Source of the DNA: Candidatus Omnitrophota bacterium
GTDB lineage: Bacteria > Omnitrophota > Gorgyraeia > Aquiviventales > Aquiviventaceae
Assembly (NCBI GenBank): GCA_023247255.1
Contig: JAHFGV010000002.1
Coordinates: 33,835-97,834 of the forward strand
DNA length: 64,000 nt
Reading direction: 5' to 3'
The notes under the pieces were generated by a model that searched no databases, was not told the origin of the DNA, and saw only the letters and a program-made list of their open reading frames with translations. Below are positions 3,499-58,713 of the stretch, in pieces. Numbering within the stretch: position 1 is the stretch's first letter; each line of letters begins with the position of its first letter. The position numbers were made by a program, and so were the translations under genes.

Positions 3499-4361
3499 TC
3501 CCGGCAGGATTGTTTCCCCCACGTAGTCCTCAGACCCACAAAGGGGATGTCGGGCGTGTTTTCATTGTTGCAGGTTCTGTCGGATTAAGCGGAGCCGCAG
3601 CCCTCTGCGCTCAGGGTGCCTTGCGTATCGGTGCGGGGCTTGTCACTCTGGGCATTCCCCGCAGCCTTCATGATTCGATGGCGGCCAAACTGACAGAGGT
3701 GATGCTCAGGGTTTTGCCAGAGACACAAGCCGGCAGCCTAGCCCTTCAGGCCTTGCCCGAGTTGATGGCTATTGTAGAGTCGATGGATGCCGTCGCCCTT
3801 GGCCCTGGACTGTCGCAGAATCCGCAAACCAAAACACTTGTTTCTCGGCTGTTGCCCAAGGTTACCCACCCCTTGGTGCTCGATGCGGATGGACTCAATG
3901 CCCTTGCCGAAGACATAGGGCTATTAAAGAAACTTCCGCTTCCGATTGTTATCACGCCACATCCCGGTGAGATGGCGCGTTTGATTCGGCAATCAGCCGC
4001 AGAGGTCCAACGAGATCGTCAACGCATTGCCGTAGAGTTCGCTAAGCGGTATCGTGTCGTCGTTGTTCTCAAAGGACACCAGACGGTGGTGGCGGATGTG
4101 GACGGTTCTATCTATGTCAACGACACCGGCAATCCTGGTATGGCCTCAGGGGGTTGCGGTGACGTATTGACAGGAATCATCGTCGGCCTTTTGGGTCAGC
4201 GTTTGTCGCTCTTTGACGCAGCGCGTCTTGGGGTGTACCTGCATGGTTTGACCGGAGACCTCGCAGCCAGCGTTCGAGGCCCAATCGGCTTGATTGCATC
4301 CGATCTGCTGGATAGAATACCCCAAGCCATCCGACAGTATCAGGCCTTGAGTCCATCTTGA
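3495..4361 (+). CDS. ADP-dependent NAD(P)H-hydrate dehydratase (YjeF C-terminal domain family)
   Basis: VFIVAGSVGLSGAA and GNPGMASGGCGDVLTG motifs of the carbohydrate-kinase-like Nnr domain. Confidence 0.8.
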   Translation: MIPAGLFPPRSPQTHKGDVGRVFIVAGSVGLSGAAALCAQGALRIGAGLVTLGIPRSLHDSMAAKLTEVMLRVLPETQAGSLALQALPELMAIVESMDAVALGPGLSQNPQTKTLVSRLLPKVTHPLVLDADGLNALAEDIGLLKKLPLPIVITPHPGEMARLIRQSAAEVQRDRQRIAVEFAKRYRVVVVLKGHQTVVADVDGSIYVNDTGNPGMASGGCGDVLTGIIVGLLGQRLSLFDAARLGVYLHGLTGDLAASVRGPIGLIASDLLDRIPQAIRQYQALSPS

Positions 4362-4383
4362 TCGTTACAGAACAGAATAAGAT

Positions 4384-4455
4384 GCTGGCGTAGCTCAATG
4401 GCAGAGCAACGGTTTTGTAAACCGTGGGTTGGAGGTTCAATTCCTCTCGCCAGCT
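4384..4455 (+). tRNA. tRNA-Thr (anticodon TGT)
   Basis: Manual cloverleaf: 7-bp acceptor gctggcg/cgccagc, anticodon loop tttgtaa, T-loop ttcaatt, 72 nt, no encoded CCA. Confidence 0.8.
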
Positions 4456-4650
4456 TATTTCTCGTCTTGCGAGAGGAATTGAAGGGAGCGCCGACTCAGT
4501 TTAAGGGCGCTGCGACGGGCAGGAGCAGCGACATTCCTTTGGAGGCGCGGGTGGCCGACCCGGAGCGAGTCGAAGACGAGCGGAGGGCGCCAATTCCTCT
4601 CGCCAGCTTATTTCTCGTCTTGCGAGAGGAATCGAAGGGAGCCGAGCCTT
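4436..4650 (+). repeat. tRNA-Thr 3'-end duplication module (52-nt direct repeats at 4436-4492 and 4591-4650 flanking a conserved 45-nt motif at 4546-4590)
   Basis: aattcctctcgccagcttatttctcgtcttgcgagaggaat[t/c]gaagggagc occurs twice. The second copy sits 155 nt downstream of the real tRNA 3' end. Confidence 0.7.
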
Positions 4651-4674
4651 CGGTCAATCAAGAGAGCCGAGGGA

Positions 4675-4752
4675 ATTGTCGATTGCCGATTTTCGATTGA
4701 ACGAAGGTTTTTCAATCGACAATCCAAAATCGACAATCGACAATTCCAAGGC
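4675..4752. repeat. palindromic TCGATTGTCGATT-family element
   Basis: ttgtcgattttcgattgaa ... ttcaatcgacaatccaaaatcgacaa inverted arms. Confidence 0.7.
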
Positions 4753-4782
4753 TGTTTCATGATCCCTTAGTCGAGGCGGGTG

Positions 4783-4843
4783 GCCGACCCGGAGCGAGTC
4801 GAAGACGAGCGGAGGGCGCCGATTCCTCTGGCCATCTGAGTTA
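4783..4843 (+). repeat. third copy of conserved 45-nt motif gcgggtggccgacccggagcgagtcgaagacgagcggagggcgcc plus degenerate tRNA-Thr 3' end
   Basis: Near-identical to 4546-4590. Followed by gattcctctggcca, a degenerate form of aattcctctcgccagc. Confidence 0.6.
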
Positions 4844-4915
4844 GCCTCACGAGGAGTTATGGTATGGTAGGAGTTCTTAGATATTCCAGTTCTGTGCGCT
4901 GATTGCTGTTCTTCA

Positions 4916-5001
4916 AGGGCAGGTGCCGGAGTGGCCAATCGGATCAGTCTGTAAAACTGACGGGCTTACCGCCCTACCCAGGTTCGAACCCTGGCCTGCC
5001 C
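4916..5001 (+). tRNA. tRNA-Tyr (anticodon GTA), long variable arm
   Basis: Acceptor gggcagg/cctgccc, anticodon stem tcagt/actga with loop ctgtaaa, type-II variable arm, T-loop ttcgaac, 86 nt. Confidence 0.8.
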
Positions 5002-5180
5002 ATCGTTTTCAAGATATGCTTACATTTTGCCACAGGCCGGTATTTGTGAAGGGAACCCGTTTGTTCCTGCAAGAAGGGGAGGGTTCGAAGGCCGAACGCC
5101 CACCGCGTTCGGCATTCCGCGGCTGCCCCGATGACAGCCGCTGCAGGAGCCGAGCCGTCGATCAATCAAAAGAGCTGAAG

Positions 5181-5250
5181 GAATTGTCGATTTTCGATTG
5201 AATGAAGGTCTTTCAATCGACAATCCAAAATCGACAATTCCAACAGCTTG
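5181..5250. repeat. palindromic TCGATTGTCGATT-family element
   Basis: aattgtcgattttcgattgaatgaagg...ttcaatcgacaatccaaaatcgacaattcc. Confidence 0.7.
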
Positions 5251-5285
5251 TCACTTGTAACTTGCTACTTGTCACTATTCTTAAT

Positions 5286-5356
5286 GCGGGTGTAGCACAG
5301 TGGTAGTGCGCTAGCCTTCCAAGCTAGTCACACGGGTTCGATTCCCGTCACCCGCT
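5286..5356 (+). tRNA. tRNA-Gly (anticodon TCC)
   Basis: Acceptor gcgggtg/cacccgc, anticodon loop cttccaa, T-loop ttcgatt, discriminator U, 71 nt. Confidence 0.8.
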
Positions 5357-5612
5357 TTTTTGTCTTGTGACGGGAATCGAAGGGAGCCGCGACACAGATT
5401 AACGTCGATCCGACGAATAGGAGGATCGATATTCCTTAGGAGCGGCGGGTGGCCGACCGAAGCGAGCCGAAGGCGAGCGGAGGCGCCGATTCCCGTCACC
5501 CGCTTTTTTGTCTTGTGACGGGAATCGAAGGGAGCCGAGCCTTCGGTCAATCAAGAGAGCCGAGGGAATTGCCGATTGTCGATTTTCGATTGAATAAAGC
5601 TATAAGAATCGG
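5339..5612 (+). repeat. tRNA-Gly 3'-end duplication module (copies at 5339-5390 and 5488-5540, conserved motif at 5440-5487) followed by a half palindromic element
   Basis: gattcccgtcacccgcttttttgtcttgtgacgggaatcgaagggagcc is duplicated. Between the copies lies ggcgggtggccgaccgaagcgagccgaaggcgagcggaggcgcc, which is homologous to the Thr-module motif. Confidence 0.7.
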
Positions 5613-5785
5613 TATTGTTTGGGCTGACCTCCTTTTGCTCCCAACGCGCATTTACTCAGGAGAGCGGAAAATAGGTTGCATTACCGCCATGCCGATTCGA
5701 CGCTGCACTCAGCGCAAGGGGCAACCTTTCATTCGCTCCGCTCAGTAAGATTTAATATGAGTCAACGCGTGCGATGGCCCTGCCG

Positions 5786-5814
5786 TTGACAGTGGGCTCA
5801 AAAGATGCTAGAGT
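5786..5814 (+). promoter_or_regulatory. candidate sigma70-type promoter for rplM-rpsI (TTGACA-17nt-TAGAGT)
   Basis: TTGACA at 5786-5791, 17-nt spacer, TAGAGT at 5809-5814, ~14 nt before the rplM ATG. Confidence 0.35.
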
Positions 5815-6275: not shown

Positions 6276-6761
6276 ATGCCTGATTTCCTAGAGTCTGCAG
6301 GGGTTGTAGAGCCTGAACCCCCAAAGACTAAAAGTCCACAGGACCCAACTGAAAGGGAAGAGCACCCAGCTGAAATGAAAGCCTCAGCCGGGACCGGACG
6401 TCGCAAGACTTCCATTGCACGCGTGCGGCTCATTCCAGGTACTGGGACCATTACGGTGAATCATACGCCTTACGAACAATGGTTTCCGCGTGAGTCGCTG
6501 CGCTTGAGCATTCGGGAACCGTTGCTGCTCACACGGCAGATTGGAAGGTATGACGTTTTCGCAAACGTGAGCGGAGGCGGTTTAAGTGGCCAGGCCGGTG
6601 CCATTCGATTAGGCATTGCGCGGGCCCTCCTTCAACTCGATCAGACCAACCGCTCGGGATTGCGCAGCGGTGGATTCTTGACTCGTGATCCTCGGATGAA
6701 GGAACGTAAGAAATACGGTCGGAAAGGCGCTCGGAAGCGATTCCAGTGGACCAAGCGGTAA
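6276..6761 (+). CDS. rpsI: 30S ribosomal protein S9
   Basis: [12 protein letters not shown] through the C-terminal [11 protein letters not shown] tail. An alternative start at 6372 ([11 protein letters not shown]) would match the canonical 130-aa S9 length. Confidence 0.85.
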
Positions 6762-6796
6762 GGCAATCAATTTTCTGCACGAAATGTCTGCTGGTG

Positions 6797-7092
6797 TTAA
6801 GAGTGCGTCCCAGAATCTCCCGTGCCCTGCGCTGGGCCTAGCTGCGAGACCCGCAAGGCGCGAGGATCGCCGCGTACCAGCTCCTGCGGTACGCAAGCGA
6901 CGAGCAACGCCGCGGGACGACGCAGATCGGCCCAGCCAATGGGCAGACTCAGGGTTGCGGCGCCAGACGGCCATCTGCGGCGTCGCTTCTCCTCGACGTA
7001 CCACGGGGGGTACGCCGTCGTCGTCGCTCCTTGCATCTGGCCGTCTGGCGCCGCAACGCAGGGTACGCGAGATTCTGGGACGCACTCTAAGA
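6797..7092. repeat. structured ~300-bp element A with 24-bp terminal inverted repeats and internal 19-bp hairpin (family shared with 55492-55804)
   Basis: Terminal inverted repeat gttaagagtgcgtcccagaatctc / gagattctgggacgcactctaa. Internal stem gttgcggcgccagacggcc...ggccgtctggcgccgcaac. The core is homologous to element B, with compensatory stem changes. Confidence 0.65.
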
Positions 7093-11692: not shown

Positions 11693-12637
11693 TTGAGAAT
11701 GACGTCACGCCATTTTCTGACCTTGCAGGATGTGAGCGAAGACGAATTGCGCGGCTTGCTGTTGGAGGCCTCGCGCATGAAGTCGGACCGAAGCCGGGCG
11801 CAAAACGTATTGAAGGGCAAGACGGTCGCGTTGATTTTTCAAAAACCGTCCATGCGAACTCGCGTTGCCTGTGAAGTTGCCGTGCAGCAGCTGGCAGGCT
11901 CGGTGATCTATCTGGGCAAGGAGGATATCCAACTCGGGCAGCGAGAGCCGATCAAGGATGTAGCGCGGGTAATCTCGCGATATGTCGATGGCGTTGTGGT
12001 GCGCATGTTCGCGCATCGTGAGGTTGAAGAATTCGCCCGCTACGCCACGGTTCCTGTAATCAACGGCTTGTCTGATTCGGCGCATCCCTGTCAGGCGGTC
12101 GCGGATTTGTTGACCATCCAAGAACAGATGGGTCGTCTGCGGGGGGTTCGACTGGCCTATATCGGTGACGGGAACAATGTGTTGCATTCGTTGATGAACG
12201 GATGCGCGATGCTGGGGGTCAATCTGGCAGTAGCGACTCCGACGCGGTATCGGCCGGACCGAGGAATTTGGGAACAGGCCAGGCAGTCCGCCCGCAAGCA
12301 TGGTGGCAGCCTTCGATGGGAAGAAGATCCCCGTGAAGCTGCCCGAGGGGCCCAGGTGGTCTACACAGACGTCTGGATCAGCATGGGTCAGGAGAGGGAG
12401 CGTGCGGCGCGTCGCCAGGCATTTGGTCGCTATCAGCTTAATCCAACGCTGCTTAAACGGGCATCTGTGGATTGCCGGATCATGCACTGCCTTCCCGCTC
12501 ATCGTGGGGAGGAAATCACAGAAGAAGTTATGGAAAGTTCTGGTTCAGTGATCTTCGATCAAGCAGAGAACCGTCTTCATGTTCATAAGGCGATTCTGGT
12601 TTTCTTGATGACAAAACGAAAGAAGCATACTCGTTAA
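11693..12637 (+). CDS. argF: ornithine carbamoyltransferase
   Basis: SMRTR carbamoyl-phosphate motif and HPCQ ornithine-binding motif. Confidence 0.85.
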   Translation: MRMTSRHFLTLQDVSEDELRGLLLEASRMKSDRSRAQNVLKGKTVALIFQKPSMRTRVACEVAVQQLAGSVIYLGKEDIQLGQREPIKDVARVISRYVDGVVVRMFAHREVEEFARYATVPVINGLSDSAHPCQAVADLLTIQEQMGRLRGVRLAYIGDGNNVLHSLMNGCAMLGVNLAVATPTRYRPDRGIWEQARQSARKHGGSLRWEEDPREAARGAQVVYTDVWISMGQERERAARRQAFGRYQLNPTLLKRASVDCRIMHCLPAHRGEEITEEVMESSGSVIFDQAENRLHVHKAILVFLMTKRKKHTR

Positions 12638-12650
12638 AAACACAGGATCG

Positions 12651-13853
12651 ATGATGAAAACAGTTGTCTTAGCCTATTCCGGAGGATTGGACACATCGGT
12701 GTGCGTGAAGTGGTTGGCCGAGCGGGGCTATCGTGTCGTTGCGTTCATGGCGGATGTCGGGCAAGGTGAGCCTTCCACCGCAGCCATCCGTCGAGCCAAA
12801 ATTGCCGGCGCCGATTCGGTGATCATCCGCGATCTGCGTCAGGAGTTTGTGACTGACTTCTGCTGGCCGGCGCTGAAGGCCCATGCGGTTTATGAAGGGG
12901 CTTACTTGTTGGCGACGGCACTGTCGCGTCCTTTGATCGCCAAGCATCTGGTGGCTGTCGCGCATCGACTGAAGGCAAAAGCGATCGCCCATGGCTGCAC
13001 GGGCAAAGGCAATGATCAGGTTCGCTTTGAAGTGACGGCGAGGATTTTAGATCCTTCGCTTCAGATCATTGCTCCGGTCCGCGAGTGGGAATTTCGCAGC
13101 CGAGAAGAGGAAGTGGAGTATGCCTTGCGCCATCGTATTCCTATCGAGGTTTCCAAACGCAGCCCTTACAGCATCGACCAGAACCTTTGGGGAACAAGTA
13201 TTGAAGCCGGGGTTTTGGAGGATCCTTGGACGGAGCCGCCGGAAGAAACCTACCGGTCCATTCGTTCTCCCCGTCGGACATCTTCTCAACCGACGGCTGT
13301 GACGATCGGATTTGCAAAAGGCAATCCGATCAGTCTCAACGGTGAACGTTTGAAAGCGGTACCGCTTGTGGAGCGACTCAACCGACTCGGGGCCTTGCAC
13401 GGCGTTGGGCGCTGCGATATGATCGAAAGCCGAGTCGTGGGCATTAAATCCCGTGAGGTTTACGAATCACCGGCCGGGACGATTTTGCTTGGCGCGCATC
13501 AAGAACTGGAACGGTTGGTGTTGGATCGCCAGCTATTTCAGATGAAACAAACCTTGGGTATTAAGTACGCCGAGCTTGTCTATGGTGGACTCTGGTTCAC
13601 ACCGCTTAAAACAGCCTTGGACGCTTTTATCGATGAAACCCAACGCACCGTCACCGGGGAAGTCCGCCTGAAACTCTTCAAGGGGACTTGTCAGGTCGTT
13701 GGACGCCGATCCCCGCATAGCCTCTACCGAGAACATTTAGCTACTTACTCAGCCAAGGATCGATTCGACCCGCGCGCCTCAACAGGATTCATTAAATTAT
13801 TTGGACTTCCCTATGAAGGTAAAATGTGGAAGGTGGAGGATGGAAAGCGATAG
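12651..13853 (+). CDS. argG: argininosuccinate synthase
   Basis: AYSGGLDTS PP-loop. Confidence 0.9.
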   Translation: MMKTVVLAYSGGLDTSVCVKWLAERGYRVVAFMADVGQGEPSTAAIRRAKIAGADSVIIRDLRQEFVTDFCWPALKAHAVYEGAYLLATALSRPLIAKHLVAVAHRLKAKAIAHGCTGKGNDQVRFEVTARILDPSLQIIAPVREWEFRSREEEVEYALRHRIPIEVSKRSPYSIDQNLWGTSIEAGVLEDPWTEPPEETYRSIRSPRRTSSQPTAVTIGFAKGNPISLNGERLKAVPLVERLNRLGALHGVGRCDMIESRVVGIKSREVYESPAGTILLGAHQELERLVLDRQLFQMKQTLGIKYAELVYGGLWFTPLKTALDAFIDETQRTVTGEVRLKLFKGTCQVVGRRSPHSLYREHLATYSAKDRFDPRASTGFIKLFGLPYEGKMWKVEDGKR

Positions 13854-31014: not shown

Positions 31015-31089
31015 TTCAGGGCTCCACTTGACACAATTAAAATGGCTCAGGCATACTTTATGTAGTTGATATTTAAATATTTACTTACG

Positions 31090-31225
31090 CTTTACATGGT
31101 ACTGGCGAAAGGGCAAATCCACCGTGAGGTGGAGACCCCCGAGAAATTAGCTTCGGGGCCGCGGGTCTGAAATCAGGACAAGACGCGGGCAAAGCTACGG
31201 GTCTCACGAGACTGCCGAGCTGCCG
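31090..31225 (+). ncRNA. candidate c-di-GMP-I (GEMM) riboswitch aptamer
   Basis: GCGAAAGGGCAAATCC plus hairpin CCACC-GTGA-GGTGG (GNRA loop) plus GAC aligns to the Vc2 GEMM 5' half CGCACAGGGCAAACC-AUUCGAAAGAGUGG-GAC. Downstream GACGCGGGCAAAGCTACGGGTC resembles the P3 consensus. Confidence 0.35.
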
Positions 31226-31257
31226 ACCAGAAAAACGGCGCCGATGGAGAATGAGAC

Positions 31258-31287
31258 CGCCGAGCTACCGAACCAGTGGTGAAGGTT
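31258..31287 (+). terminator. intrinsic terminator (possible riboswitch expression platform)
   Basis: ccgaacc-agtggtgaa-ggttcgg 7-bp stem followed by TTTTTTT, 48 nt before the pilX-like ATG. Confidence 0.6.
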
Positions 31288-31335
31288 CGGTTTTTTTATT
31301 TACTATCACCTGTCATTTATCTGAGACCTAACAAG

Positions 31336-32328: not shown

Positions 32329-32873
32329 GGGGGTACCCGTGGTGTCTATCGTCGATTTTCGATTTTCGATTGTCGATTGAAAGCCATAGCGTTATCGATC
32401 GACGATCCACAATCCACAATCGACAATTCCATAGAGGTATCCGTGGTTTCACCATGATCGAGGTTCTCATCGCCTCAGTCATTGCTTCCATAGTCATCGG
32501 GGGAACGATGACAGCCTTTGTGACGGCAAGCCGGATGACGCGTCAGCAAAGCGGACCGGCCAATTCCGATGCCGCTTTGTATGTCCAGCAGCTTTTGGAG
32601 GCGATTCGCAATCACGTGGCTGCCGACTCGACATGGTTCAGCACAAGGGTCGGGCCGGTTCCCGCTACGTGGGCGGCTTGGCGAAACGATGATCCCCCAT
32701 TGTCGGCGTCCTGTCCCTCGGCATCTATCGTTTGCCGGACAGATGTGAACAATGGGCGGAAATATTTTATCACCTATGTCGACGACACCTGTGATGATGA
32801 CGGCGATACCAGTGATTGTTACTACGCCGTGACCGTGAGGGTCTGTTGGGATGAGCCGGCCTCGTCATGCTAA
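32301..32873 (+). CDS. type IV pilin-like protein (minor pilin, PilV/FimT-like)
   Basis: G|FTMIEVLIASV class III signal motif (Gly -1, Phe +1, Glu +5). No canonical start near the motif; the ORF reads through palindromic element 32345-32430. Confidence 0.6.
   Translation: MGRNMGQAMRGYPWCLSSIFDFRLSIESHSVIDRRSTIHNRQFHRGIRGFTMIEVLIASVIASIVIGGTMTAFVTASRMTRQQSGPANSDAALYVQQLLEAIRNHVAADSTWFSTRVGPVPATWAAWRNDDPPLSASCPSASIVCRTDVNNGRKYFITYVDDTCDDDGDTSDCYYAVTVRVCWDEPASSC
32345..32430. repeat. palindromic TCGATTGTCGATT-family element inside the pilin leader ORF
   Basis: cgattttcgattttcgattgtcgattgaaagccatagcg...cgacgatccacaatccacaatcgacaattcc. Confidence 0.7.
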
Positions 32874-33606
32874 ACAAGCGTATCCTTTTCGATTGTCGAT
32901 TGTCGATTTTCGATTGAAAGCCATAGCATTGCCAATCGACGATCCACAATCGACGATCGACGATTCCATTGTAGGTATGACTCTGATTGAGGTTATGGTC
33001 TCCCTGACGCTGGCGATGATCGTTCTGCTTGCGGTAACCAGCATCGATGTGACGCGGGTGCGGATTCACGAAGAGCTTCGTGATCGCTCAGGAATTGCAA
33101 CGCCGGAGCATGGGGAGGCTTCCTTGGCTGCTCTCTCTATAGAAAAAGACATCGAGCAGGCCGATCGGATCAATATCATTGCGGATGGCATTCAAGTGCG
33201 GATTCCCGATATGACGATCGCAGGATGTACGGGGACTGTTCCTGATGCCAGTTGCTTTGATGCTGCGGCCAACTACCGCTGGGACCAATACCGGCTTGAC
33301 GCTGACCAGCTGCTTTATTACCGCGGCACCCAAGTGGCCTGCCCCACTCCCACAGTGCTGGCTGAACAGATTGCGGATTTATCGTTTCAGTACGTGAATG
33401 AAGCCCCCGCTCCTCCTGGAGGCGATCCGGCAAACCAAGACAACAACCTGCTTGCCTACACGGTGAAATGGGATAACGCAGATGGGCTAAGCCATGAATT
33501 TCAGGGGGTGGTCAGTCTCAGAGCCTCTGCCTACACGGATGTTTCGACAGGGCTTCAGGCTCCCAATGGAACAGACATCAGTCCACCGCCTACGGTATGT
33601 TCGTAG
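32851..33606 (+). CDS. type IV pilin-like protein (minor pilin, PilW-like size)
   Basis: G|MTLIEVMVSLTLAMIVLL motif. The ORF reads through palindromic element 32886-32967. Confidence 0.6.
   Translation: MSRPRHAKQAYPFRLSIVDFRLKAIALPIDDPQSTIDDSIVGMTLIEVMVSLTLAMIVLLAVTSIDVTRVRIHEELRDRSGIATPEHGEASLAALSIEKDIEQADRINIIADGIQVRIPDMTIAGCTGTVPDASCFDAAANYRWDQYRLDADQLLYYRGTQVACPTPTVLAEQIADLSFQYVNEAPAPPGGDPANQDNNLLAYTVKWDNADGLSHEFQGVVSLRASAYTDVSTGLQAPNGTDISPPPTVCS
32886..32967. repeat. palindromic TCGATTGTCGATT-family element
   Basis: cgattgtcgattgtcgattttcgattgaaagccatagc...caatcgacgatccacaatcgacgatcgacgattcc. Confidence 0.7.
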
Positions 33607-48217: not shown

Positions 48218-48305
48218 ATTTTCGATTGTCGATTTGCGATTGTCGATTGGAAAAAAGTTTTTGGCTGTGAATCGAGAATCCGGAATTGGCAATCGACGAT
48301 TCATC
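48218..48305. repeat. palindromic TCGATTGTCGATT-family element
   Basis: aattttcgattgtcgatttgcgattgtcgattgg...aatcgagaatccggaattggcaatcgacgattc. Confidence 0.65.
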
Positions 48306-48505: not shown

Positions 48506-48964
48506 ATGAAGAGAAAAAGCGGGTTTACGTTGCTTGAGTTGTTGATGGTCGTCATCATCATTGCAATCTTGGCTTCCATCGCTTTGCCTCAGTTCATGCG
48601 TGCGTCCGAGCGCGCCCGTGCCACCGAGGCGATTCAACTACTCGGCCAGATCCGCACGGCGGAAAATCGATACAAGTCCCAGAATGATCTAAACAACTAC
48701 TCCGATGTCGTGGGTGATCTGGACTTTGATCTGCCGACATCAACTCGGTTCTGGAATTGGACGGGTGCTGCAGTAGGTGTAGCTCCTGCATTCAATGTCA
48801 ATGAGACGAATGCAGCGGCTGGAACCCCAGCAACAGGCATGGCAGAAGCAGCTAGAAGTTCAGGGCAGTATATAGGAGAAATCGTTGGCATCCAATTTGG
48901 GACGGGGACCATTTGTGGTAACTTTACTCCCATGATGCCGCTAGTGGCTTGTGTGGAGGACTGA
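48506..48964 (+). CDS. type IV major pilin paralog 1
   Basis: RBS aggagg. Leader MKRKSG|FTLLELL. Conserved alpha1 helix ...ALPQFMRASERARATEA. C-terminal GIQFGTGTICGNFTP...AC disulfide loop. Confidence 0.85.
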   Translation: MKRKSGFTLLELLMVVIIIAILASIALPQFMRASERARATEAIQLLGQIRTAENRYKSQNDLNNYSDVVGDLDFDLPTSTRFWNWTGAAVGVAPAFNVNETNAAAGTPATGMAEAARSSGQYIGEIVGIQFGTGTICGNFTPMMPLVACVED

Positions 48965-49034
48965 TCCGTTTCAAGAGAATTGCGTAAGCACGCGATTCTG
49001 GCAAGCAAGAGAATCTTGCCATGGTGGTTGGACT

Positions 49035-49148
49035 TCTAGGCTCTGGGTTGAGGGTTCAGGGTAAATACACCACCGCTCATCGGTGAGACGGGTCCTGGCC
49101 CCCAGCCCAGAACCCCGAACCGACTGGCGTTTTTCAGCAGCCTGCTGA
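49035..49148. repeat. second copy of the ~115-bp pilQ-leader repeat
   Basis: See 43195-43322. Located between pilin paralogs 1 and 2 and followed directly by the hairpin element. Confidence 0.6.
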
Positions 49149-49199
49149 TACAAACGAATTATCTAACGCGACGATGCCAGAGGATAATTCGTTTGTATC
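49147..49199. repeat. second copy of the 54-bp hairpin element
   Basis: gatacaaacgaattatctaacgcgacgatgccagaggataattcgtttgtatc. Confidence 0.6.
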
Positions 49200-49346
49200 A
49201 GTGGGTATGAGTGGAAGGTTACGTAGACAAGGGCTTTGAGAAAGGTAGTCTGCTAGGGGGAGGTGAGCCTGTTATTGAATCTCGCAGAATCATTTGGTAC
49301 GATCTCTCAACGATAAATCAGTTTCATTCCTTCCGTGAGCTGCAAT

Positions 49347-49826
49347 ATGATTAAAATTAGGGTTAGAAGAAAGGGCGGCTTCACTCTCCTTGAAATGCTA
49401 ACAGTCGTTATCATCATCGCCATCCTTACCTCGATTGCCCTGCCGCAGTTCATGCGGGCTTCCGAGCGCGTCCGTGCAGCAGAGGCCATTCAAATATTGG
49501 GTCAGATTCGCGGCTCCCAGCATCGGCACAAGGCTATGAGTCTCGCCAACGACTATACCAACGACGTGACAGCATTAGATGTGGACTTACCTCAAGATAA
49601 GACAGGTGCTCCGATTACCAATATCTGGGATTGGACCCCTGCGATCCTGAATAGCAACATGTCCGTAAGCCATACTGCTCCGTTCTTCGCCACAGGCTAT
49701 GTAGCGGTTCCAAGAAATAGTGGTCAGTATAAGGGTGAGCTCTTAGGTATACAATTCGGGACAGGAACATTGTGTGGTGATTTCACCCCTTACGGAGGCA
49801 CAATCATCGCCTGTGGTGAGGATTAA
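49347..49826 (+). CDS. type IV major pilin paralog 2
   Basis: Leader MIKIRVRRKGG|FTLLEML. The same SERxRAAEA helix and CGDFTP C-terminal loop. GTG 49335 is an alternative start. Confidence 0.8.
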   Translation: MIKIRVRRKGGFTLLEMLTVVIIIAILTSIALPQFMRASERVRAAEAIQILGQIRGSQHRHKAMSLANDYTNDVTALDVDLPQDKTGAPITNIWDWTPAILNSNMSVSHTAPFFATGYVAVPRNSGQYKGELLGIQFGTGTLCGDFTPYGGTIIACGED

Positions 49827-49923
49827 ATCAGTGACCAGTGAGAAGCTCTGCGAGAATACACTCCACGCAATTCAAAAGAGGCGGATCACGGAAGGACTCA
49901 CCAGAAAGAGGAGGTGATTCAAG

Positions 49924-50412
49924 ATGAGGAGACTGGGTTTTACCTTGATTGAGCTTCTGACTGTCGTCATCATCTTGGGTGTTTTAGCCGCTGCCGCCCT
50001 GCCACAGTATATGAAAGCCGTAGAGGCATCCCGTGCCGGTGAGGCGCTGAGCATGCTTACGGCGTTGCGTCGTGCCGCCCTTCGTTACCAGCTCCAGCAT
50101 GATCAGGCACACTTCCCAATAGATTCAGAAGTCACTAACGGCATATTGGATGTTGAATGGTACATTGATACTACTACGAATGGCAAGTTTGATGCCGGTG
50201 AGACACTACTCATGCAGTATTGGACATTTAATCCGAGTACTGACTACGATGTGGATAATAGCGTTTCTCCCAGTATAGGACATATCCAAACGGTACGTAA
50301 AAGTGGTACGAACATAGGTAAAACCATTGGTGTTGAACTTAACAGTGGGGATACCTGTGGTGATTTTCCTGCAGCTTCGATTGTTGCACCCGGTGCTTGT
50401 GCCAATAACTAA
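49924..50412 (+). CDS. type IV major pilin paralog 3
   Basis: RBS gaggaggtga. Leader MRRLG|FTLIELL. YMKAVEASRAGEA helix. C-terminal GDTCGDFP...GACANN loop. Confidence 0.85.
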   Translation: MRRLGFTLIELLTVVIILGVLAAAALPQYMKAVEASRAGEALSMLTALRRAALRYQLQHDQAHFPIDSEVTNGILDVEWYIDTTTNGKFDAGETLLMQYWTFNPSTDYDVDNSVSPSIGHIQTVRKSGTNIGKTIGVELNSGDTCGDFPAASIVAPGACANN

Positions 50413-50424
50413 TCCTCCAGAGAG

Positions 50425-50898
50425 GTGAAGAAAATGGGAAGGAGATCTTTTACACTACCAGAACTATTAGTAGTAGTCGTTGTCCTTGCTGTTCTAGCAT
50501 CAATGGCCATTCCAGAGTACATCAAAGCGGTGGAGAAAAGCCGCGCCGCTGAGGCCCTGGATGCCTTAGGAGCGATTCGCCAATCTGTGAAACGTTACCG
50601 TTGGGCCAATTCTACTGGTATATATCCAGATAACGCTGCTGATCTTGACATTGGTGCGACCAATCTGAAGTATTGGGATAGCCTTAATCTTGACAACAAT
50701 AGCGATGGTACTGGTGCCAGTGCTAAAGGCTACGCAGACTACCAGCGCAATGGCGGTAACTTTGACAATAGACACCTGGGAATAACCTTTGGGACCGGTA
50801 TACTTTGTGGAGACTTTGTGCCTATGGGACTGATTCTAACCGCTGGTAAGACATGGCAGGACGACCCCAACGTAGGCTGTGTTACAAAACGCAATTGA
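50425..50898 (+). CDS. type IV major pilin paralog 4 (atypical Ser at -1, Pro at +4)
   Basis: RBS gagaggtga. MKKMGRRS|FTLPELL. YIKAVEKSRAAEA helix. GILCGDFVP loop. Confidence 0.75.
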   Translation: MKKMGRRSFTLPELLVVVVVLAVLASMAIPEYIKAVEKSRAAEALDALGAIRQSVKRYRWANSTGIYPDNAADLDIGATNLKYWDSLNLDNNSDGTGASAKGYADYQRNGGNFDNRHLGITFGTGILCGDFVPMGLILTAGKTWQDDPNVGCVTKRN

Positions 50899-50933
50899 TA
50901 GAATAGGGTATGAGTTAGGTGGGGATTTATCCC

Positions 50934-51374
50934 ATGCCGAAAGGCTTAGCTGGTTTTACCCTGCTTGAGCTATTGAGTGTGGTGATTATCATCGCTGTCC
51001 TTACGACGGCAGCGATTCCGGAGTACATGAAGGCGGTTGAGCGCTCGCGCGCGGCGGAGGCCCTGACCCTTTTGGGTGCGATTCGCGTTTCTGAGCAACG
51101 CTACAAGGCCCAGTCCCCAGGCGATACGTATACGGCCGCCTTTAGCGAGTTGGACATACAGTTTCCTGTCGGTGGTACACAAAGCTGGGGTGCTGAAACT
51201 CCTGCCGGTGGGAATCCTCCAAATCCTCCAGAGAACTTCAGCCTTACGACTTCTCGTGCTCGGCTGACACGCAAGGGGGGGACCTACAACGATCAAGTGC
51301 TGGGAATGATTTTTGATACTGGCGCTCTGTGCGGCGACTTCGTCCCCCTCAGCGTGAGCGTCGGCTGTCCTTAG
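50934..51374 (+). CDS. type IV major pilin paralog 5
   Basis: Leader MPKGLAG|FTLLELL. YMKAVERSRAAEA helix. GALCGDFVP...GCP C-terminus. GTG 50919 is an alternative start. Confidence 0.8.
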   Translation: MPKGLAGFTLLELLSVVIIIAVLTTAAIPEYMKAVERSRAAEALTLLGAIRVSEQRYKAQSPGDTYTAAFSELDIQFPVGGTQSWGAETPAGGNPPNPPENFSLTTSRARLTRKGGTYNDQVLGMIFDTGALCGDFVPLSVSVGCP

Positions 51375-51470
51375 TTCTTCCTGCTTTCCTCCTGCATGTT
51401 CAACCTCCCAGTTTTGTAGAAGCATAGGTATCTATGCTACAATCGTTCGAGCCGAAGTAGATTTGGAAGA

Positions 51471-51512
51471 CGGCTGTTCAATCGAAAATCGACAATCATC
51501 AATCGACAATTC
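51471..51512. repeat. half copy of palindromic TCGATTG-family element (right arm only)
   Basis: gacggctgttcaatcgaaaatcgacaatcatcaatcgacaattcc. Confidence 0.5.
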
Positions 51513-51616
51513 CATGGGGGAGACATCCCGCCCACCCGATCGTTGAAGCAAACCAACTGGGCCCATGCCTTCGGCTGTGGGCCCGATGGCGGGGAGGAGT
51601 CCCACAAGATGAGTTT

Positions 51617-51746
51617 GTGGCACTGATAACCTCTCCCCTCTCAAGGAATCATGAAACTGCCTTGGAATTTTCGATTGTCGATTTTGGATTTTCGATTGGA
51701 AGACGGCTGTTCAAACGAAAATCGACAATCGTCAATCGACAATTCC
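51617..51746. repeat. composite repeat: ~45-bp block plus palindromic TCGATTG-family element (near-duplicate of 58517-58646)
   Basis: gtggcactgataacctctcccctctcaaggaatcatgaaactgcc followed by ttttcgattgtcgattttggattttcgattggaagacggctgttcaaacgaaaatcgacaatcgtcaatcgacaattcc. Confidence 0.65.
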
Positions 51747-51889
51747 ACGGAATGAGTTTGTGGCATTCAAGAACACGCTCCGCGTGGGTCGACATCCCGC
51801 CCACCCATTGGCTGTTCTGCCGTGTCACCTACGGCTTTCGGCGTGGCGCAATGGCGGGGTCGAAATTAATTCGCGGAGGCAAAATTCTT

Positions 51890-51962
51890 GGGGCAGTAGC
51901 TCAGTTGGGAGAGCGCGACATTCGCATTGTCGAGGCCAGGGGTTCGATCCCCCTCTGCTCCA
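51890..51962 (+). tRNA. tRNA-Ala (anticodon CGC)
   Basis: Acceptor ggggcag/ctgctcc with the G3:U70 Ala identity pair, anticodon loop ttcgcat, T-loop ttcgatc, 73 nt. Confidence 0.8.
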
Positions 51963-52318
51963 TTTCTAAACGTCTTGGGGATCGAAGGGAGCCGAGCCTT
52001 CTTTCCTCAACGTCGCCGCGACTTATGGGAGCGGCGACAATCCACTTGGCGAGGCGAGTGCCCGACCGGAGCCCGAACGAAGTGAGGGCGAAGGCGGCGA
52101 TCCCCCTCTGCTCCATTTCTAGACGTCTTGGGGATCGAAGGTCAAGCGCCCGTCGCGCTCGACATTCCGCGGCTGCCACGATGGCAGCCGCTTCAGGAGC
52201 ACCGAGCCTTCGACCAATGAAGAGAGCCGAAGGAATTGTCGATTGATGATTGTCGATTTTCGATTGAACGAAGGTTTTTTAATCGACAATCCAAAATCGA
52301 CAATCGAAAATTCAAAAA
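51950..52318 (+). repeat. tRNA-Ala 3'-end duplication module (copies at 51950-51995 and 52097-52145; motif cccgaccggagcccgaacgaagtgagggcgaaggcggc) followed by palindromic element 52233-52312
   Basis: gatccccctctgctccatttcta.acgtcttggggatcgaagg is duplicated. Same architecture as the Thr and Gly modules at 4436-5612. Confidence 0.7.
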
Positions 52319-52544
52319 GGGAACGCCGACAACCGAGGCCGAAGGCCAAGGAAGTACCGCAATCAGGCAGACGATTGCGGTACCTCCGCTGCTCCACCCT
52401 GCTTAACATAGGTTGCAATATATTATACTACGACCCTCGTTTCACGTTCGTGACGGCCCACGCTAATAAAAACTCTTGAGGTCACATCCGTTCATTGACG
52501 ACTACAGCACGGACATGCTACCCTTTCAAGCAGGAGGAAACGCC

Positions 52545-52739: not shown

Positions 52740-52992
52740 TCTCGTCTTCAAGCCGTCGGTCGAAAAGGATTTCCGCTGTCTCTCCCATGAAGTTGTACCC
52801 CGCCTGACGAAGAAGGTCGAAGAGCTCCGGACAAATCCTTTTCCCCATCAGGCCGAGAGGCTCTCGGGTGCCGAACGGCTCTATCGGATTCGTATCGGAG
52901 ACTAGCGGGTTGTCTACGAGGTCGACACGCATCTCAAGCAGATCACCATCCATCACATACGGCACCGCCGAGAGGTCTATCGAGCACTATGA
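52726..52992 (+). pseudogene. RelE/ParE-family toxin gene interrupted by in-frame TAG at codon 60 (52903-52905)
   Basis: Conceptual translation ...AERLSGAERLYRIRIGD*RVVYEVDTHLKQITIHHIRHRREVYRAL matches the RelE/ParE signature YRIRVGDYRVIY...HRREVY, with the conserved Tyr codon replaced by TAG. Confidence 0.65.
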
Positions 52993-53729
52993 TGCCGCGT
53001 GTGTTTATCCCCACACATCAAATCCACGGCTCCGTCATAACGATTGATGATGCGCGACAGATCCATCATCTTCGCGATGTGCTGCGTCTGAAGATGGGCG
53101 ATGGCATCATTTGTTGCGACAGTCAGGGAACAGAACACAGGGGTCTGATCCGCTTTGAGTCCAAAGACCGACTGGAAGTCGAACTTCAAGGATCTAGCCT
53201 TGTTGCGAAACAGTCCGTTTCCATCTGGTTGGCTGCGGCCCTCATCAAAGCGAATCGCTTCGATTGGTTGGTGCAAAAAGCGACAGAGTTAGGCGTTTCA
53301 AGAATCAGCCCTCTGGTTACTCGTTACACCGTGATTCGTCTTAGACAAGAACAGGCAAGATCAAAGTGCGCACGGTGGCAACGCATCGCCCAAGAAGCCG
53401 CCAAGCAATGCGGTCGGAAGACCCTGCCCATCGTCGACGTCCCTGAGCCCATGGGACGACTGCTTGAGCAGACTAAGCAAAGCCCTCTTGTGCTTATCCC
53501 CACCTTGGTCAAGGAGGCCATTCCTCTTTCGGAGGTTTTGAAAAGCTCGGGTGCCGCTCGTGAAGTGGTGGTTTTCATCGGGCCGGAGGGGGATTTTAGT
53601 GAAGAAGAGCTGCGCCTGGCCCGATCCTTCGGTGCAAGGCCCGTGTCCTTGGGATCTCTGACGCTGCGTTCGGAGACCGCCGCTGTTGCCGCAGTTGCGA
53701 TTCTACAATACAGCCTGGGGGGCCTGTGA
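52989..53729 (+). CDS. rsmE: 16S rRNA (uracil1498-N3)-methyltransferase
   Basis: PUA-like N-domain and SPOUT C-domain with FIGPEGDFSEEEL motif. Confidence 0.85.
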   Translation: MMPRVFIPTHQIHGSVITIDDARQIHHLRDVLRLKMGDGIICCDSQGTEHRGLIRFESKDRLEVELQGSSLVAKQSVSIWLAAALIKANRFDWLVQKATELGVSRISPLVTRYTVIRLRQEQARSKCARWQRIAQEAAKQCGRKTLPIVDVPEPMGRLLEQTKQSPLVLIPTLVKEAIPLSEVLKSSGAAREVVVFIGPEGDFSEEELRLARSFGARPVSLGSLTLRSETAAVAAVAILQYSLGGL

Positions 53730-58516: not shown

Positions 58517-58646
58517 GTGGCACTAGTAACTTCTCCCTTGCCAAGGCATCATGAAACTACCTTTGAATTTCCGATTTTCGATTTTGGATTGTCGATTGAA
58601 AGACCTCTGTTTAATCGAAAATCGACAATCGTCAATCGACAATTCC
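58517..58646. repeat. composite repeat (duplicate of 51617-51746)
   Basis: gtggcactagtaacttctcccttgccaaggcatcatgaaactacc plus a palindromic TCGATTG-family element. Confidence 0.65.
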
Positions 58647-58713
58647 TTGAGCCCTCTTGTAGTGAAGGCCGTGGCGCAATGGTGGGGTTGAGCCAGCCCC
58701 TACCAGTGGCTAA

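Follow-up and report, generated by a model that had tools for sequence, protein, structure and literature searches.

A structured element bearing sense and antisense copies of the tRNA 3' end downstream of tRNA genes in Omnitrophota

Why should tRNA genes be followed, one after another, by a second copy of their own 3' end set around a conserved interior? This question is raised by a stretch of 64,000 nucleotides (nt) from a Candidatus Omnitrophota bacterium (contig JAHFGV010000002.1, positions 33,835 to 97,834), hereafter the window, for which an initial annotation, made from the sequence alone, had proposed a common architecture after the tRNA-Thr, tRNA-Gly and tRNA-Ala genes. Complete elements were indeed found at all three, and tRNA-Tyr is followed by a truncated one. 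We call X the unit that runs from an antisense arm downstream of the tRNA through the second tRNA 3' end; R1 is the 3' end of the real tRNA, R2 its second sense copy and R3 a third copy. X, a folded element of about 110-135 nt, is previously undescribed, and its arrangement fits no known RNA family or mobile element. Our best, still tentative, explanation is a small, non-coding element that has settled time and again on the 3' flank of tRNA genes in an Omnitrophota-like lineage.

The four tRNA genes of the window, called concordantly by ARAGORN and Rfam, all lie on the + strand, and each X copy lies on the same strand as its tRNA (Table 1). All four genes are followed by downstream elements, complete at Thr, Gly and Ala and truncated at Tyr and Gly, with a second tandem element at both the Thr and the Ala loci. 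The claim that each motif is fused to a second copy of the 3' end of its own tRNA was borne out by blast, which returned direct repeats of 52 nt at 98% identity for Thr (4438-4489 and 4591-4642), 51 nt at 100% for Gly (5339-5389 and 5487-5537) and 44 nt at 98% for Ala (51945-51988 and 52098-52141); in loci outside the window the R1/R2 repeat is about 17-22 nt long. The Gly and Thr copies share 86% identity across 146 nt (blast), and a 40-nt core occurs in two exact copies, at 4547-4586 and 4776-4815, when shuffled sequences lead one to expect none. The second of these belongs to the third Thr motif copy with a degenerate tRNA 3' end, which the initial annotation had rightly recognised. Inverted repeats are also present: the T-loop, the 3' strand of the T-stem and the 3' strand of the acceptor stem pair with sequence 12-15 nt downstream. 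The hairpin into which the tRNA 3' ends had been said to extend is well formed at Thr (18 nt at 94%) and Gly (15 nt at 100%), and at Ala it is reduced to only about 8 bp.

Promoter-like sites were seen at 4290-4318, upstream of tRNA-Thr, and at 5786-5814, before rplM. No terminator-like or further promoter-like signal was found between the genes of the Thr-Tyr-Gly cluster, which, X copies included, is therefore consistent with a single transcription unit. In public assemblies (seen in L019 and L031), open reading frames (ORFs) of 100 and 99 amino acids (aa) are called over the equivalents of window positions 4398-4700, covering tRNA-Thr and X, and 5449-5748, covering the Gly X core; these calls are almost certainly spurious.

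The inverted and the direct copies of the tRNA end form the two strands of one helix, P1. The 5' strand, or antisense arm, is complementary to a segment of the local tRNA that begins at T54, takes in the 3' strand of the T-stem and reaches into that of the acceptor; in the Ala(ggc) copy of contig L015 it extends through CCA. The 3' strand is R2, which in complete copies repeats the tRNA sequence in direct orientation, starting at C56/R57 and stopping at the 3' end or a few nt further on. The antisense arm thus spans the whole T-loop (54-60), while R2 begins only at 56/57, and one antisense arm has two identical sense partners, R1 or R2; a single design therefore accounts for both the hairpin behind the tRNA and the second tRNA end. 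When whole precursors of eight loci were folded with the antisense arm forced to pair either upstream or downstream, the two folds differed by 1.8-8.1 kcal/mol, and in seven of the eight the lower-energy fold placed R1 in the hairpin and closed the tRNA body with R2, leaving about 150 nt lodged in the T-loop. This near equality results from the duplication itself and is therefore not independent evidence, but it illustrates what such an RNA would be capable of. The idea that X offers a tRNA-like acceptor mimic for aminoacylation or for RNase Z was weakened by the L015 copy, in which A-U stands in place of G3:U70 and the antisense arm pairs with CCA, so that neither RNase Z nor the CCA-adding enzyme nor a synthetase would meet a tRNA-like end.

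Between the two strands of P1, X has a fold of its own. Folding of 11 copies as single sequences gave the same three-way junction recurrently. Since MAFFT with RNAalifold misaligned helices P2 and P3, a structural alignment was made by hand and passed through MAFFT with N padding. Over 12 sequences and 41 base pairs, 91.1% of the cells form standard pairs, against 35-52% when the partners are slid by 1-3 columns; 22 of the 41 pairs are changed on both sides, and none of 500 shuffles reached any observed covariation measure. Both the slid-partner control and the count of double changes are large despite an alignment fitted to the structure, and we regard the structure as real. Covariation affects 8 of the 10 pairs of P1 and 7 of the 8 pairs of P3, whose loop reads GA-C[GAAUA]G-GA and which carries a C-G to G-C swap in L013. 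P2 exists as GCCGC/GCGGC, GCGCC/GGCGC, GGCCC/GGGCC and GCC-GA-GCC/GGC-GA-GGC, and across copies the P2-P3 arm is tipped by a GA-N[GNRNA]N'-GA loop. The stretch of about 70 nt that had been taken for a variable spacer holds P2 and P3 of this same fold, with many compensatory changes. P4, marked by tandem G.A pairs and a GAA triloop, consists of P4a (GGCCGACC(C)/(G)GGCGCC, varied by a correlated indel and by CCU/AGG, and in the window Ala copy by a swap of G-C for C-G) and P4b (GC-GA-GCC[GAA]GGC-GA-GC, with a U-A pair in Thr and different proportions in Ala). The core of the Ala copy is the most divergent, and its fold is retained through compensatory changes in P4a and P4b. The suggestion that the 45-nt motif imitates a T-arm could not be upheld: GGAGG is invariant in P4 while the T-stems differ, and the GGAGG...CCTCT pairing is not conserved elsewhere.

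The sense strand folds better than its complement, by 5-13 kcal/mol, in all 11 copies. For the Gly copy, RNA energy parameters reproduce the covariation-supported fold (z = -3.9) and DNA parameters do not (z = -2.55), and on the opposite strand C.T mismatches would take the place of the tandem G.A motifs. From these three points the folded molecule is taken to be a sense-strand transcript, the alternative being a folded sense-strand DNA.

Tandem copies differ in subtype and in state. At the Thr locus the core of the second copy is identical to that of the first, and the P2 strands differ (GCGCC in X1, GCCGAGCC in X2). The block gagccttcg...ggaattg, formerly counted as a further part of the module, turned out to be the 5' half of this tandem copy X2. 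The 5' block of the second Gly copy (5532-5571) is identical to the Thr X2 block at 40 of 40 positions. The Tyr element has neither P4 nor a second tRNA end and matches the second Ala element at 86% over 87 nt (blast); the latter gave no covariance-model match even with filters off around the Ala locus, being too divergent to score. Distal tandem copies are in general degenerate, truncated or invaded by a palindrome. This TCGATTG palindrome has arms in which three to four heptamers in tandem (TCGATTG/TCGATTT) stand opposite CAATCGA heptamers; GGAATT...AATTCC often encloses it. It had been listed as a component of the module, a view that we reject: it is a generic dispersed repeat, with 18 pattern matches at about nine window sites against 0.04 expected, and it occupies the P3 arm of distal X copies as well as unrelated intergenic sites. 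Two of its copies (51640-51770 and 58540-58670) have flanking sequence in common (CATCATGAAACT.CCTT). The palindrome, and not X, thus has the scattered intergenic copies that mark repeats of the REP or MITE type.

Beyond the window, X was sought by exact-pattern scans of genomes (one per species) and of metagenome contigs, and with a covariance model built from the structural alignment. The genome scan gave three real copies, in L002 and L003 (metagenome-assembled genomes, MAGs, labelled Planctomycetales) and in L009 (an Omnitrophota MAG), along with six chance matches, all inside GC-rich coding regions. Eight of the nine metagenome matches were real: Ala(cgc) three times, Gly(ccc) on the identical contigs L011 and L017, Arg(tcg) once (L013), and Ala(ggc) on the identical contigs L015 and L016, all of them terminating in the 3' end of their own tRNA. 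The L003 copy follows tRNA-Thr(cgt) and the L009 copy tRNA-Ala(cgc); the L002 copy, which lacks R2, lies beside a degenerate tRNA-like sequence and has no Rfam match. In total, the motif scans and the covariance model yielded nine distinct sequences beyond the window. The real matches all stand directly 3' of a tRNA gene (in L002, the degenerate tRNA-like one) and on its strand, as proposed when the modules were first described as a family tied to tRNA 3' ends, and the hosts amount to seven tRNA species: Thr(tgt), Thr(cgt), Gly(tcc), Gly(ccc), Ala(cgc), Ala(ggc) and Arg(tcg). The covariance model scored all known copies at 71-107 bits and returned no further X in the window or in the other loci searched. 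Neither the scans nor the covariance-model searches detected X away from tRNA genes, and the many non-tRNA copies by which a mere dispersed repeat would be recognised did not appear in the motif search beyond the window. Viral contigs gave no match, so that a viral origin is unsupported, and a concatenated six-frame peptide query made from the core had no match at E <= 10.

As to the lineage, the window derives from a metagenome, and the named sequences nearest to its ribosomal protein L13 come from Candidatus Omnitrophota MAGs (68-72% identity). Relatives reached through this L13 neighbour showed no tRNA cluster and no X upstream of rplM. The order tRNA-Ala(cgc)-X-rsmE of the window, in which the tRNA and its elements lie upstream of rsmE (52989-53729), recurs in L012, whose downstream sequence is shared by L009, L010 and L014. 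We read X as a feature of an Omnitrophota-type lineage, and conservation across phyla should accordingly be stated with restraint. The genes that neighbour X are housekeeping genes, so that a cis-regulatory tie to one gene class is unlikely.

Within this lineage the presence of X is patchy. After tRNA-Arg(tcg) it is present in L013 and absent from L025, where the tRNA differs by one base, from L026-L028, from L029 and from L030; the closest relatives of the L013 ORF also lack X after tRNA-Arg. Beside the same carbohydrate-kinase gene, tRNA-Thr(tgt) carries X in the window and none in the syntenic L017. The 3' half of X is 91-100% identical among copies (79-85% for the window Ala copy), and the 5' half clusters across tRNA types and not by tRNA identity: that of the window Gly copy is closest to L015 Ala(ggc), at 75%, and that of the window Ala copy matches L013 Arg at 70% and the syntenic Ala(cgc) copies at only 55-59%. 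In L009, L010, L012 and L014 the fold has been kept, P3 having exchanged A-U for C-G on both sides and P2 having gained a C-G pair. X thus looks like an element under selection for its own structure, of which single copies are gained, stacked, lost or degraded. We also observed that the R2 of L009 (~230-250) reads ...GATCCACCA and its tRNA-Ala gene (100-120) reads ...GATCCACTG, with CCA in the copy and not in the gene; L010 has the reverse, and the observation is too thin to call an RNA-derived copy.

X resembles several known systems in part. With Rfam 15 at gathering thresholds, only the four tRNAs were found in the window, and at E <= 10 over 4380-5620 X was overlapped only by chance miRNA-type matches on hairpins. 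No description of such an element was found in the literature. The X regions gave no tRNA call by ARAGORN or RF00005, and their tRNA sequence is limited to the last 17-20 nt. Integron attC sites and the CTX-phage attP(+) site share with X a conservation of structure over sequence in parts, an inverted and a direct core whose stem recreates the target duplex, arrays in which the newest unit is proximal, and a putative crossover at the 5' edge of the 3' core copy. X, however, lies inside what looks like a highly transcribed tRNA operon, without IntI or Xer context and without a cassette ORF, and its fold is reproduced by RNA and not by DNA energy parameters; the attC cores RYYYAAC/GTTRRRY are absent from the X alignment, and no IntI was found among the window ORFs scanned. 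Trailer RNAs of the 3'ETS-leuZ type, YrlA Y RNAs and mascRNA share an origin in, or the shape of, a tRNA precursor and a terminal closing stem, X lying in a trailer as well, but none has both sense and antisense copies of the neighbouring tRNA 3' end. Unlike tRNA-mimicking RNAs, X has no T-loop or D-loop mimic, and its CCA is base-paired in L015.

The reading that we tentatively prefer, without holding it for probable, is that X is a non-autonomous structured-RNA element which invades tRNA genes at position 56/57 of the T-loop and comes with a replacement 3' end. X would enter the gene at this position, and the tRNA would stay intact because the element brings its own substitute for the displaced end; the direct repeat and its sharp start at 56/57 would follow from the same event. 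The antisense arm may be the part that matches X to its tRNA, and the conserved arms may be the recognition part for a trans-acting machinery. New insertions would land beside the tRNA and push older copies outward to decay, and movement could proceed through RNA, through folded single-stranded DNA or by a recombinase. A colonising element of this kind would explain the direct repeat, its sharp start, the tandem order and the patchiness. Several points weigh against it. Neither within X nor next to it is a mobility protein encoded in the window or at most loci, and no recent pair of empty and filled sites from one species was obtained. The tRNA-specific 3' end and antisense arm preclude simple hopping between tRNAs, so that spread to seven tRNA species needs recombination between copies or copying from the target. 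The in-place compensatory change at the Ala(cgc)-rsmE loci of L009, L010, L012 and L014 fits a host function as well, and the complete identity of the 40-nt block in the second Thr and Gly copies could reflect gene conversion and not transposition. Finally, the alignment that reveals covariation was made by hand to fit the structure, and the sample is small (13 sequences, several of them related). A bolder version, which we consider unlikely, makes X the nucleic-acid part of a homing system for tRNA genes or, equivalently, the first bacterial T-loop intron-like element processed by a protein or a ribozyme. Here the antisense arm would read the T-loop/acceptor strand of one tRNA or of its gene, insertion at 56/57 would install X with its replacement 3' end, and the GA-rich arms would recruit a trans-acting enzyme, for example a LAGLIDADG-like protein, an integrase or an RtcB-type ligase.

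The same structural evidence can be turned toward a host RNA acting in cis or after processing, a reading that we find possible and yet doubtful. X would then be co-transcribed within the tRNA trailer and set free by processing of the tRNA ends as a stable RNA with a tRNA-like closing helix, or it would act as a conformational switch in which the antisense arm invades the T-arm and acceptor stem with the T-loop as toehold, R2 serves as a decoy of equal affinity, and a factor binding the arms decides on tRNA maturation. The strong covariation, the sense-strand bias and the in-place compensatory evolution at the syntenic Ala(cgc)-rsmE loci L009-L014 are in line with it. So are the position inside an apparent tRNA operon, where tRNA-Thr alone has a promoter-like site upstream and no terminator was found, the closeness of the two precursor folds at all eight loci, and an arm that covers the whole T-loop when R2 starts only at 56/57. 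GA-rich internal loops are, moreover, typical protein-binding RNA motifs. However, X is patchy at the same tRNA in close relatives; the tandem arrays of different subtypes and the truncated or decayed copies suggest that single copies are dispensable; the L015 arm pairs even with CCA; and the spread to seven tRNA species is left unexplained. It is improbable that X is a guide RNA directing an effector to the tRNA gene or the tRNA, with a scaffold followed by R2 as a 3' guide, as in TnpB omega RNA or crRNA, and an antisense segment as in IS110 bridge RNA. The layout has points in its favour: a scaffold of about 100-150 nt precedes 17-20 nt identical to the target, as in TnpB omega (right-end) RNA, IS200/IS605 ends and IS110 bridge RNA, with subterminal hairpins and with an insertion that would lie 3' of an invariant GGTTC, located 5' of the matching site in the tRNA; variable, tRNA-specific segments are embedded in a conserved trailer (TTTCTC..GTCTT-like), junction box and core. 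The flank of X, however, duplicates upstream sequence, and a direct repeat of the target is not made by IS200/IS605; the left-end hairpin of X, unlike TnpB and IS110 RNAs, is tRNA-specific, and the two putative guides pair with each other in P1 and would be occluded. The target would be the cell's own adjacent essential gene, no Rfam guide-RNA family was matched even at E = 10, and no TnpA, TnpB, IscB, Cas or IS110 gene was seen near the X loci read or among the window ORFs scanned.

Little probability is likewise given to a bacterial T-loop intron, or the descendant of one, in which the segment from G57 of R1 to the CGCC end of X would be excised and the ends ligated, for example by RtcB with archease. 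Archaeal introns occur at T-loop positions, share interiors between tRNAs and are thought to transpose; with these non-canonical introns X shares the insertion point, related interiors across tRNAs, exon-complementary flanks and the presence of RtcB in the lineage, an archease-RtcB pair lying by tRNA clusters in the related L026 and L028. The R2-completed tRNA is also the minimum-energy fold of the full precursor at seven of eight loci, although the near-equal energies follow automatically from the duplication. In this bacterial host, however, the upstream tRNA is already complete through duplication of the 3' exon, so that splicing is unnecessary; the junction in the predicted precursor folds is multi-helical, with no bulge-helix-bulge motif seen; bacteria commonly have RtcB; and no group I or group II intron was matched in Rfam, X measuring 108-135 nt where more than 200 nt is expected and being too small for group I. 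Very improbable, in our view, is that the copies are inert scars, either attL/attR remnants of deleted integrase islands or products of local slippage or duplication. The analogy with attL/attR made in the initial annotation holds only in a formal sense: as with tyrosine integrases that use the T-loop sublocation, a direct repeat runs from the T-loop to the 3' end, the tRNA is left intact and insertions can be stacked, such a repeat being reportedly the classic footprint of an integrase, and an integrase does lie beside the tRNA at one X locus (tRNA-Ala in L012). That gene, the only integrase seen, is nevertheless 5' of the tRNA and outside the repeats; between them only about 100-135 nt are found, with no real ORF, integrase or cargo and with a covarying single-strand fold, and att sites do not have the additional inverted copy of the tRNA end. 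The same interior at seven tRNA species and in many genomes, conserved in its 3' half and with 22 covarying pairs, is not what independent deletions would yield as one structured remnant. The covariation thus largely refutes inert scars, unless it is an artefact of the alignment.

Should the element be what we suppose, it would represent a new class of structured RNA that carries its own tRNA-specific arms, one sense and one antisense, and whose part would be to regulate tRNA maturation or ride on it, or else to home into tRNA genes and leave them functional. In either case, tRNA genes would serve in a new way as a genomic niche, and this in an uncultured and poorly known Omnitrophota-like phylum. 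X is also a compact natural RNA scaffold with exchangeable target-matching segments, as in guide-RNA tools. In practice, it accounts for the spurious 99-100-aa ORF calls and for contig breaks around these tRNA genes. The Logan contigs searched for population variants break inside tRNA-Thr.

Table 1. Positions of tRNA genes, X copies, related elements and palindrome sites within the window.
Feature	Position	Strand	Parts and remarks	Evidence
tRNA-Thr(tgt)	4384-4455	+	R1 4438-4455 (last 18 nt, T-loop C56 to discriminator)	ARAGORN; Rfam tRNA 71.4 bits
Thr X1	4466-4608	+	antisense arm (P1 5' strand) 4466-4481; GAAGGGA junction 4481-4487; P2 4488-4492 with 4544-4548; P3 hairpin 4506-4532; P4 4553-4591; R2 (sense copy of tRNA 3' end) 4591-4608	covariance-model match 4471-4601, 101.2 bits; repeats; structure counts
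Thr X2	4619-4836	+	tandem, other subtype; antisense arm 4619-4634; P2 4641-4648 with 4770-4777; TCGATTG palindrome 4672-4747 in place of P3; core/P4 4782-4820 (core 4776-4820); R3 (degenerate third tRNA 3' end) 4821-4836	covariance-model match 4624-4830, 78.7 bits
tRNA-Tyr(gta)	4917-5002	+		ARAGORN, Rfam
Tyr truncated element	5075-5250	+	antisense arm 5075-5089, complementary to Tyr T-loop/T-stem; then two hairpins, GAGCCGAGCC..GGAATTG block (5146-5186), palindrome (5173-5248)	inverted and direct repeats; blast
tRNA-Gly(tcc)	5286-5356	+	R1 5339-5356	ARAGORN, Rfam
Gly X	5367-5506	+	antisense arm 5367-5379; junction 5379-5385; P2 5386-5390 with 5442-5446; P3 5404-5430; P4 5451-5489; R2 5489-5506	covariance-model match 5369-5497, 93.4 bits
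Gly truncated second copy	5515-5597	+	antisense arm 5515-5529; half palindrome	repeats, blast
tRNA-Ala(cgc)	51889-51963	+	R1 51945-51963	ARAGORN, Rfam
Ala X	51977-52115	+	antisense arm 51977-51984; R2 52098-52115	covariance-model match 51974-52108, 91 bits
Ala second, degenerate element	52130-52398	+	antisense arm 52130-52137; two hairpins; GAGCC..GGAATTG block 52202-52240; palindrome ~52230-52310; remnant GCCGAAGGC; Ala-like acceptor end CCTCCGCTGCTCCACC ~52383-52398	read from sequence; blast
TCGATTG palindrome sites	4672-4747, 5173-5248, 5565-5597, 32340-32420, 32885-32960, 48225-48300, 51470-51515, 51665-51750, 52230-52310, 58565-58645			

Other elements are associated with tRNA genes in this lineage. 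Contigs that bear X also hold a family of LAGLIDADG-like ORFs of 225-290 aa, with 596 homologues, of which those that are named are only hypothetical proteins of Omnitrophica; no Pfam domain was matched by this family. Its slot is conserved between tRNA-Arg(tcg) and tRNA-Lys(ctt), and the 3' end of the ORF overlaps the tRNA. The ORF is preceded by a 5' fragment of tRNA-Lys, which stands immediately ahead of the start codon in L026 and L029 and about 200 nt upstream in L028; 5' fragment, ORF and full tRNA-Lys together form a mirror image of X. Directly downstream of that full tRNA-Lys comes an archease-RtcB(intein)-SerRS cluster in L026 (7779-12531) and in L028 (7770-10983). In L012, a tyrosine recombinase gene (11856-12779, - strand; Phage_integrase, 6e-34) lies immediately 5' of the X-bearing tRNA-Ala(cgc), at the contig end; L014 shares the L012 sequence upstream of this tRNA and L010 does not. 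The LAGLIDADG-like family, the archease-RtcB cluster and the L012 integrase all have no counterpart in the window. These arrangements show the tRNA genes of the lineage to be a habitual target of elements that spare the tRNA by partial duplication.

Minor observations were made at the same or similar loci. Further ORFs with faint LAGLIDADG_3 matches precede tRNA-Ser genes. After tRNA-Arg(tcg) in L026 (~6705-6800) lies a tRNA-like pseudogene with an acceptor stem and a T-arm, in which a hairpin with the loop CUGAAUGAAUACGAGA takes the place of the D and anticodon arms. In L027 (~6913-6975), a direct copy of the T-loop-to-acceptor segment (CGATTTCCTGCCGG) is located about 60 nt downstream of tRNA-Arg(tcg) and about 80 nt after the original, with no X between the segment and its copy. 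In L017, a 65-aa HTH_17 (excisionase-family) ORF with its own promoter-like sequence (11980-12177, + strand) stands between the X-R2 of tRNA-Gly(ccc), which it follows directly, and tRNA-Thr(ggt).

In the remainder of the window, at 31030-31300 a promoter-like TTGACA... precedes a GC-rich stretch of about 200 nt that appears structured and closes with a hairpin and a T-run (ccgaaccagtggtgaaggttcggttttttt), upstream of an unannotated ORF in a region of pilin-like genes; no Rfam family matched this stretch at gathering thresholds. All 52 non-overlapping window ORFs of at least 150 aa are on the + strand, and those scanned or seen annotated are housekeeping or pilus genes. They include folP, pdxJ, acpS, rplM-rpsI, an arginine/lysine biosynthesis block, uvrA, rsmE, RNase E/G and obg, together with a type II/IV pilus cluster that has five tandem pilin-like genes at 48506-51374.

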